Source: Escherichia coli (GTDB lineage Bacteria; Pseudomonadota; Gammaproteobacteria; Enterobacterales; Enterobacteriaceae). Taken from it: a stretch of 4,267 nucleotides of DNA. Within the stretch, counting starts at the first letter, position 1. Each line of letters opens with the position of its first letter. Shown piece after piece: positions 3,669-3,784 of this stretch. The translations under genes and the position numbers were made by a program. The notes under the pieces are model-generated. The model saw nothing but the letters and a program-made list of their open reading frames with translations. It did not search any database and had not been told where the DNA came from. The stretch lies in assembly GCF_003334385.1 (NCBI RefSeq), contig NZ_QOWN01000088.1. The stretch is one strand, 5' to 3'.

Positions 3669-3784
3669 ATTTCGGCCACGCGATGGCGTAGCCCGAGACG
3701 ATAAGTTCGCTTACCGGCTCGAATAAAGAGAGCTTCTCTCGATATTCAGTGCAGAATGAAAATCAGGTAGCCGAGTTCCAGGAT

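Follow-up and report, generated by a model that had tools for sequence, protein, structure and literature searches.

Few transcription units of Gammaproteobacteria are as old and as highly expressed as the tufB operon, in which one precursor gives rise to two essential single-copy tRNAs (thrU and glyT) and to a third of the EF-Tu of the cell. In the Escherichia coli locus considered here, a window of 4,267 nucleotides (nt; contig NZ_QOWN01000088.1), the four tRNA genes of this operon are separated by 8 nt (thrU-tyrU, 3576-3583), 116 nt (tyrU-glyT, 3669-3784) and 6 nt (glyT-thrT, 3860-3865). The original prediction, made from the sequence of the window, had given these three lengths, which coincide exactly with the tRNA boundaries called by ARAGORN and Rfam, and had described the long spacer as devoid of open reading frames (ORFs) and of tRNA cloverleaves, as was confirmed by an ORF scan, ARAGORN and Rfam. 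It had also put forward two options for the role of the spacer. That of a processing scaffold fits the pairing, described below, of the 3' third of the spacer with the trailer of thrT, whereas that of a small RNA (sRNA) sponge found no support in the portion of the interactome data searched. On balance, we lean towards the view that the spacer serves in cis as a structural element of the thrU-tyrU-glyT-thrT-tufB precursor, namely as a processing or insulating stalk; a trans-acting role as a sponge is probably not the case.

The central element of this proposal is a long-range helix between the leader of glyT and the trailer of thrT. The features involved are the following:

3747-3775, plus strand: 5' strand of the helix, CAGUGCAGAAUGAAAAUCAGGUAGCCGAG, which pairs with 3950-3979
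3950-3979, plus strand: 3' strand of the helix, CUCCUCCCUGUUUUUUCCUUCUGUUUAUUG, at the C/U-rich start of the thrT-tufB intergenic region
3785-3941, plus strand: looped-out tRNA pair (glyT, the 6-nt spacer and thrT), both cloverleaves lying within the stalk in the fold
3765-3777, plus strand: near-invariant 13-mer AGGUAGCCGAGUU, containing the second copy of a short direct repeat; its AG and GAG lie in the inner long-range helix
3776-3784, plus strand: proximal 5' leader of glyT, UUCCAGGAU, with YCAGGAU in most Enterobacteriaceae and Erwiniaceae
3669-3673, plus strand: AUUUC directly after the CCA of tyrU, single-stranded and U-rich, fitting the RNase E pattern RN|WUU and a predicted cleavage site

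In E. coli, both the minimum free energy (MFE) fold and the centroid of 3745-3985 pair 3747-3775 with 3950-3979 and keep the two cloverleaves inside (z -4.0), and in the MFE fold of 3669-4075 (407 nt) 3751-3775 is paired with 3950-3973, the probability of the inner arm being ~1.0. The full 39-nt leader set against the first 39 nt of the trailer gave 28 pairs and -20.9 kcal/mol with RNAduplex. The helix also appears in the unconstrained MFE folds of 17 out of 23 other Enterobacterales, as well as in those of Vibrio, Grimontia and Pseudoalteromonas, and RNAduplex placed the leader segment located 5' of UAGCCGAG on trailer nt ~14-36 in 37 of 37 Enterobacterales, with free energies of -8 to -18 kcal/mol. 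When the 40 nt before glyT were set against the 75 nt after thrT, compensatory changes could be followed between lineages: CAGG:CCUG in E. coli, Erwiniaceae and Yersiniaceae is replaced by UGGG:CCCG in the Citrobacter/Enterobacter type, by UGGG:CCCA in strain RIT691 and by UUUAGG:CCUAAA in Gilliamella, and the outer end reads ACAG:CUGU, but GCAG:CUGC in Arsenophonus.

The columns of the helix were picked by separate leader-only and trailer-only sequence patterns. Pairs were found in 85% of the cells of these anchored columns vs 31-48% with the partner slid, a value reached by 2 of 500 shuffles; in the inner arm 90% of the cells are paired and four of the seven pairs have changed on both sides. 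Cognate duplexes were more stable than those with swapped partners, both within Enterobacterales (-14.6 vs -12.0 kcal/mol, p=5e-5) and with one representative per genus in 53 genera (-19.3 vs -14.3 kcal/mol, permutation p=2e-5) or in 21 non-enteric genera (-18.2 vs -13.0 kcal/mol, p=2e-5), and more stable than reversed-strand controls that keep the composition (-19.3 vs -12.6 and -13.0, p ~6e-10), phylogeny being ignored in all four comparisons; the cognate duplex was better than both reversed controls in 51 of the 53 genera. Lineage-specific duplexes of 14-30 pairs were found in Vibrio, Grimontia, Pseudoalteromonas, Zobellella, Aeromonas, Catenovulum, Glaciecola, Rheinheimera and others, and in the non-enteric lineages the helix takes up nearly the whole of the short spacer. 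As in a processing stalk, the flanking sequences are complementary and their pairing has been kept by co-evolution of the two strands, in tests that ignore phylogeny. Conservation, complementarity, covariation and thermodynamic plausibility of the helix are observed facts.

The length of the spacer can be placed in the same context. Related loci were collected with the initial 40 nt of glyT as a probe against GTDB species genomes, which yielded at least 120 gammaproteobacterial loci, and ARAGORN was run on each of them. Among the loci listed, the order Thr(UGU)-Tyr-Gly(UCC)-Thr(GGU) is found throughout Gammaproteobacteria, with a Gly-Thr gap of 2-15 nt. The Tyr-Gly gap is never as short as the Gly-Thr gap: nearly every locus of Enterobacterales has one of 87-483 nt, three Orbaceae having 51-56 nt, and in Vibrionaceae, Alteromonadales, Aeromonas and others it mostly measures 19-48 nt, with a few longer gaps of up to 114 nt. 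As judged from these loci, the long spacer is a fixed trait of Enterobacterales, and that the gap is never short would be due to the fact that practically all of the 30-45-nt spacer of Vibrio, Pseudoalteromonas, Aeromonas and related lineages of this kind is taken up by the helix strand. Aeromonas, Vibrio and Photobacterium carry, in addition, copies of tRNA-Gly(UCC) outside the Thr-Tyr-Gly-Thr operon, often after tRNA-Gly(CCC).

Conservation is concentrated in the part of the spacer that forms the helix strand. In 33 distinct aligned spacers, 3752-3784 is conserved like the tRNAs and the 5' part is variable, and the majority base reaches at least 90% at every position of the 13-mer AGGUAGCCGAGUU. 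Within the fetched loci (0.94 Mb), the motif GGTAGCCGAGTT was found 41 times, in all cases directly upstream of glyT, and is absent upstream of the stand-alone glyT copies of Vibrio, Photobacterium and Aeromonas; since the leaders of these copies lack it, the motif is tied to the operon context and not to the maturation of glyT as such. The AGGA of the glyT leader is able to pair with trailer nt +2 to +5, and the cut by RNase P is expected after U3784. Between E. coli and Escherichia albertii all 116 spacer positions are identical, as are 113 of the 114 positions of the thrT-tufB gap, in comparison with 85-87% identity at third codon positions of coaA and birA and 88.6% in the coaA-thrU gap; at 13% divergence, the probability of zero changes over 116 sites is ~1e-7. 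The whole region from thrU to the tufB start is 99-100% identical between the two species, both non-coding gaps included; the operon is thus frozen as a whole, possibly by recombination. The test of conservation and covariation that the original prediction had pointed to thus came out clearly positive: the spacer is conserved and structured, and therefore not junk.

Other explanations of the conserved leader were considered and rejected. Its pairing with the bodies of glyT, tyrU or thrT gave RNAduplex z values of -2.0 to +1.5 in 12 lineages, with no consistent site. By reading, the sigma-54 look-alike in AGGTAGCCGAGTTCC is without the -12 GC, and the CsrA-type site in CAGGAUG has lost its GGA in Yersinia, Cedecea and Morganellaceae; a reported RpoN/NtrC SELEX peak is located in the coaA-thrU gap and not in the tyrU-glyT spacer. 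A small ORF running from the GTG at 3750 to a TAA in glyT has no Shine-Dalgarno sequence, and its conservation is not codon-like. The resemblance to the D-arm of a class II tRNA, as a relic, is real, but in Vibrio, Rheinheimera and Glaciecola the bases concerned have their partner in the trailer.

The 5' two-thirds of the spacer (3674-3747, ~80 nt) is, from the alignments, an Enterobacterales-specific insert of three covarying hairpins (HP1 to HP3):

3674-3693, plus strand: HP1, GGCCACGC-GAUG-GCGUAGCC, with one C.A mismatch; its 3' strand carries the first copy of the repeat
3695-3720, plus strand: HP2, GAGACGAUAAG-UUCG-CUUACCGGCUC, the best-covarying hairpin, with mismatches A.G and A.C in E. 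coli
3721-3747, plus strand: HP3, GAAUA-AA-GAGAG-CUU-CUCUC-GA-UAUUC, helices 5 and 6 of the covariance-model alignment

A covariance model of the insert, built from 16 Enterobacteriaceae, detected one full-length copy per enterobacterial locus, always in the Tyr-Gly spacer (84.6 bits in E. coli). In the insert alignment, which was fitted to this model, 80% of the cells are in standard pairs vs 65% in shuffles and 23-45% with the partner slid, and 34 of the 37 pairs have changed on both sides. These include all six pairs of HP1 (helices 2 and 3, 75-87% of cells paired) and 11 of the 12 pairs of HP2 (83% paired); an alignment made by MAFFT alone agrees for HP2, with double changes in 8 of 12 pairs and 88% of cells paired. 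The upstream part of the spacer is very divergent in sequence among Enterobacterales, yet the hairpins are always formed, and the closing stem and three hairpins of the relatives have arms of 11-13 base pairs and are not tRNA-like. A second, weak match of the model lies on the minus strand of a Photorhabdus caribbeanensis contig (2828-2954; 15 bits, E 0.06), with 24 Watson-Crick and 5 G.U pairs.

The stability of the insert differs between genera. RNAfold, run against dinucleotide shuffles on 39 enterobacterial modules, gave a mean z of -4.0 on the plus strand and -2.9 on the minus strand; the plus strand reaches z -5 to -8 in the spacers of Citrobacter, Enterobacter, Kluyvera, Shimwellia and Pantoea, and E. 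coli is an outlier. Counts in the plus sense (G.U 114 vs A.C 51) also favour the plus strand. The E. coli insert has three A.C and one G.U in the plus sense, the other genera showing no such asymmetry, and its better minus-strand fold is explained by the A.C mismatches becoming G.U on that strand. In E. coli, HP1 has pair probabilities of 0.3-0.98 and is formed in the long-context MFE fold, HP3 has probabilities of 0.6 at the base and 0.9 at the tip and is formed in the MFE fold of the 407-nt context, and the consensus fold amounts to -27.7 kcal/mol vs -31.8 kcal/mol for the MFE.

Two small motifs of the spacer had served as clues in the original prediction, a hairpin GAGAG-CTT-CTCTC at 3728-3740 and a direct repeat, GTAGCCCGAG at 3688-3697 and GTAGCCGAG at 3768-3776. 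Their coordinates are right, but as clues they are uninformative when taken alone, being often matched by dinucleotide shuffles of the spacer: 47% of the shuffles contain a perfect hairpin of at least 5 bp, 71% an exact direct repeat of 6 nt and 7% a 6+3 repeat with one indel. The plus strand of the E. coli spacer likewise folds about as well as its shuffles (z -0.64, and -0.86 in a re-run), and the minus strand folds better (z -3.4). It is through the comparison across species, and solely through it, that both motifs gain a meaning, as the hairpin is the tip of the conserved HP3 and the second repeat copy falls within the near-invariant 13-nt block AGGTAGCCGAGTT (3765-3777) of Enterobacterales. 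In E. coli-type spacers the 5' end, UUCGGCCAC, can pair with GUAGCCGAG with a probability of 0.25 in the isolated spacer, and this pairing may be one reason for the direct repeat.

Some enterobacterial spacers are longer still. In very long ones, one to three copies of RtT (RF00391; 52-126 bits) are found between tyrU and the hairpin module, as is the case in Yersinia, Dickeya, Cedecea, Mixta, Acerihabitans, Serratia bockelmannii and Erwinia psidii; the Acerihabitans spacer has two strong copies and a truncated third. Each RtT copy ends in a pseudo 3' end of tRNA-Tyr, followed by the same U-rich site and hairpin, and the arrangement suggests that RtT has spread by unequal recombination between CCACCA ends. 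No RtT match was obtained in E. coli at 3560-3880 at E<=10 (gathering threshold 45 bits; positive controls in the spacers of other genera and at E. coli tyrTV scored 52-138 bits), RtT being confined in this species to tyrT-tyrV, with four copies, and a copy of the spacer module at E. coli tyrTV was likewise discarded, as the spacer covariance model (R1) had no match there. The E. coli spacer is therefore not classed here as RtT, but its site is, by all appearances, a recurrent home for it. Both are structured non-tRNA RNAs directly 3' of a tRNA-Tyr gene and co-transcribed with tRNAs; they differ in that RtT, unlike the E. coli spacer element, terminates with a copied 3' end of tRNA-Tyr. Homology to STnc40 was rejected too, since the match in Citrobacter (24.7 of 45 bits) is below threshold and STnc40 is a mutT attenuator located elsewhere; the match is taken as chance, as both show an A-tract, a hairpin and a U-tract.

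A mechanism in two layers can be proposed. In the first, ancestral one, the last ~38 nt of the spacer (about 3747-3784) would provide the 5' strand and the first ~35 nt after thrT the 3' strand of a helix that would loop out glyT-thrT on a stalk, as happens with 16S and 23S rRNA in rRNA precursors. In the second, three self-contained hairpins would have been added upstream in Enterobacterales, together with RtT in some genera, and they would keep the extra enterobacterial RNA folded on itself. The stalk would hold both ends of the tRNA pair together and leave exposed only short single-stranded U-rich sites, namely CCA-A|UUUC at 3669 and GAG|UUC at 3775/3776, which would allow an ordered endonucleolytic separation into thrU-tyrU, the glyT-thrT pair and the tufB mRNA. 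As candidate nucleases, RNase E would act at the U-rich sites and RNase P at the 5' ends of the tRNAs, with cuts at 3785 and 3866, and RNase III might cleave the stalk. NUUUC or NAUUC follows the CCA in most Enterobacterales spacers, as well as each RtT pseudo-CCA, and the GAG|UU of the 13-mer would also fit an RNase E-type site. The preference RN|WUU is that reported for Salmonella RNase E (PMC5222698). Which nuclease acts, and with what effect on the output of tRNA and EF-Tu, we infer from the sequences.

Within the stalk the C/U-rich trailer would, moreover, be held in double-stranded form. The ~50 nt that follow thrT (3942-3990 in the window) are C/U-rich and G-poor, and the pyrimidine tract is conserved across Enterobacterales; C/U-rich, G-poor tracts are typical of Rho loading sites. 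A TRIC-seq supplementary table places the tufB 5' untranslated region (5'UTR) at 4175880-4175943 of strain MG1655, which corresponds to 3992-4055 of the window (MG1655 position = window position + 4171888, from the MG1655 annotation). The annotated tufB 5' end at 3992 thus lies 50 nt past thrT, beyond the 3' strand of the helix; if this end is real, both strands of the stalk would be discarded, as in rRNA stalks.

A bolder version of this proposal, which we regard as rather unlikely, is that throughout Gammaproteobacteria the stalk makes glyT-thrT an excisable cassette, its excision being coupled to what becomes of the tufB mRNA. Cleavage of the stalk, whether by RNase III or by RNase E, or its strands remaining annealed, would then decide the exposure of the C/U-rich start of the tufB leader to Rho or RNase E, and through this exposure the amount of EF-Tu would be set relative to that of the essential tRNA-Gly2 and of the threonine tRNAs; the hairpin insert and the pairing at the 5' end of the spacer (P0, described below) would act as a co-transcriptional timer of stalk formation.

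Several points weigh against a processing stalk. Six of the 23 enterobacterial MFE folds are without the helix, and part of the pairing is compositional, because the leader is purine-rich and the trailer pyrimidine-rich: with respect to dinucleotide shuffles of the leader, the cognate duplex has a mean z of about -1.6 (-1.4 in E. coli). Since both strands are so conserved, few independent compensatory events are seen within Enterobacterales, and the permutation and Wilcoxon tests were uncorrected for phylogeny. Pairing of AG and GAG with CUCCU explains the complete invariance of AGGUAGCCGAGUU in part, and ACAGAAAG has a rival partner at the 5' end of the spacer (CUUUCUG, or P0). In E. coli the insert is thermodynamically weak, with a probability of ~0.13 for HP2 and a plus-strand z of -0.64 to -0.86, which makes its role there doubtful. 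No experimental datum for the helix or for cleavage was found in the searchable literature, nor any paper there linking RNase III with thrT, and rnc mutants are not known to be defective in tRNA maturation, which argues against an obligatory RNase III step.

The same helix could serve transcription instead of processing, and this is a possible, if somewhat unlikely, alternative. In the thrT trailer, a Rho (rut) site, or else a signal for pausing or termination, would be hidden by the leader, the helix being an antiterminator that lets transcription reach tufB, and competition by P0 could tune it; such a role would be compatible with one in processing. All the evidence for the helix applies to it equally, and the C/U-rich, G-poor trailer (3942-3990) and the existence of an alternative partner for ACAGAAAG speak in its favour. 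The title of a 1987 paper on the thrU-tufB operon reportedly includes 'activation, termination and antitermination'. Against it, reading of the spacer reveals no obvious boxA-like sequence, and a scan of the plus strand at 3300-4100 detected neither a sigma-70 promoter nor a terminator-like site; moreover, the helix requires that the trailer be transcribed first, when Rho could already be loaded.

A trans-acting by-product appears quite unlikely. Here the spacer, released by RNase E and RNase P, would persist as a fragment of ~105-115 nt and, bound to Hfq or ProQ, act as a sponge for an sRNA; in a variant, it would stay annealed to the excised trailer or to the 5' region of tufB. Being conserved and, in most genera, very stably folded (plus-strand z -5 to -8), it would resist exonucleases; its consensus ACAGAAAGAAC is an (ARN)n-like motif, and RtT, a processed RNA, sits in the same spacer in other genera. 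The E. coli copy, by contrast, has the least stable fold and an interrupted ARN motif, and the most conserved bases have a partner in cis and form a motif that is absent from stand-alone glyT copies. With regard to interactomes, one Hfq-CLASH chimera contains the glyT leader; it is a single-read chimera of the cutC 3'UTR, which we take to be the MicL region, with an unprocessed glyT precursor, and its predicted pairing is in the tRNA body. The glyT fragment of this chimera starts in the spacer at AAUGAAAAUCAGG (window 3755-3807, MG1655 4175642-4175695). The feature tables of the RIL-seq study of Bar et al. 2021 contain no tyrU-glyT spacer node in the portion searched, tRNA regions being often filtered, and a TRIC-seq preprint that recovers the 3' external transcribed spacer of leuZ (3'ETS-leuZ) lists tRNA-derived sponges in its text with no mention of this spacer. 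A 3'-seq paper reports several read pile-ups near the four tRNAs. Like 3'ETS-leuZ and the internal transcribed spacer (ITS) of metZ-metW-metV, the tyrU-glyT spacer is transcribed as part of an E. coli tRNA operon and cut out on maturation, but those two work in trans, by way of Hfq and of short seeds that pair with RybB, RyhB or MicF, whereas the conserved bases of this one have a cis partner 180 nt downstream.

That the spacer has no present function in E. coli is very unlikely. Its 5' 80 nt would be the decaying remnant of an insert, left for example by duplication and loss of an RtT-type element beside tRNA-Tyr, and the leader-trailer complementarity would be an accident of composition. Mismatches (A.C and A.G) are indeed present in the E. 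coli hairpins, and their plus strand does not fold better than its shuffles; spacer length and content vary widely between genera (87-483 nt among the loci listed), with RtT copies coming and going; however, the 116/116 identity with E. albertii contrasts with ~13% divergence at neighbouring silent and intergenic sites, the hairpins covary, swapped and reversed controls of the helix are worse than the cognate pairs, and no enterobacterial lineage among the loci listed has deleted the region.

It is hardly credible, finally, that HP3 and a U-run act as a weak terminator in an internal attenuator or that the functional RNA is on the minus strand, since the A-tract, hairpin and U-tract of HP3 in the Citrobacter/Enterobacter type and its weak resemblance to STnc40 are offset by the lack of conservation of the U-tract, which E. 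coli, Cedecea and Pantoea do not have, and by the location of that mutT attenuator elsewhere, and the minus strand, in spite of a terminator-like site at 3740-3728 and of its z of -3.4 vs -0.6 in E. coli, folds worse than the plus strand across species, shows the G.U:A.C ratio of 114:51 in favour of the plus sense and has no promoter-like site for an antisense transcript near the spacer. Intrinsic termination is in any case not seen on the plus strand at 3300-4100, and a U-run after HP3 is found in some genera alone; the comparison of folds in 39 species and the G.U:A.C count led to the rejection of the minus strand as the functional one.

A processing stalk has known relatives with which it can be compared. 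As in the stalks of rRNA, the flanks of stable-RNA genes are complementary over ~20-30 nt in a polycistronic precursor, and the sequence drifts while the pairing is kept. Here, in contrast, two tRNAs are bracketed, the helix is shorter and bulged (20-28 pairs in E. coli), and the downstream strand leads into tufB; rRNA stalks are cut by RNase III, which given the known rnc phenotypes is not expected for the glyT-thrT stalk. Pairing between the 5' leader and the 3' trailer is also known from single pre-tRNAs, where it influences the access of RNase P and of the 3' enzyme, but the present case has a dicistronic span, reaches out to ~35 nt from the tRNA ends and covaries across a whole bacterial class. 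An rRNA-type stalk around a tRNA pair in a tRNA-mRNA operon and the unannotated structured spacer family would both seem to be new, and neither the databases nor the literature yielded an Rfam family, a RefSeq feature or a searchable paper describing the structure of the spacer or the leader-trailer helix.

The remaining features of the window are as follows:

window as a whole: tail of rrnB, murB, birA, coaA (minus strand), thrU, tyrU, glyT, thrT and the start of tufB
3500-3575: thrU, from ARAGORN and Rfam
3584-3668, plus strand: tyrU, tRNA-Tyr GUA, from ARAGORN (Rfam tRNA 53.4 bits), the upstream edge of the spacer
3785-3859, plus strand: glyT, from ARAGORN and Rfam
3866-3941, plus strand: thrT, from ARAGORN and Rfam

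No tRNA, tmRNA or pseudo-tRNA was found in the spacer, as ARAGORN and the Rfam tRNA model call just these four tRNAs, and no Rfam family matched the spacer even at E<=10. It contains no ORF, the overlapping ORFs starting or ending in tRNA genes and bearing no signs of a gene, and it carries no annotation in MG1655 nor beneath the matches in the sampled E. coli records. Within the species it is nearly uniform, being at least 99% identical in 5416 of the 5421 complete E. coli genomes that contain it. At the other end of the window, the rrnB tail (1-85) has two terminator-like hairpins (~2-20, and 47-75 followed by a T-run), for which Rfam gave no match; one report (PMC8144298) describes an sRNA gene, rrB, between two rrnB terminators.

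If the helix were merely compositional, the finding would shrink to an ordinary, moderately conserved processing spacer. As a stalk, it would account for a long-noticed oddity, the single long spacer of this operon, and the three-hairpin insert together with the invariant leader would represent an unannotated structured RNA family to be considered in genome annotation. For the questions of how a tRNA-mRNA transcript comes apart and how the untranslated 600 nt before tufB escape Rho and RNases, the stalk would offer a concrete, mutable element.

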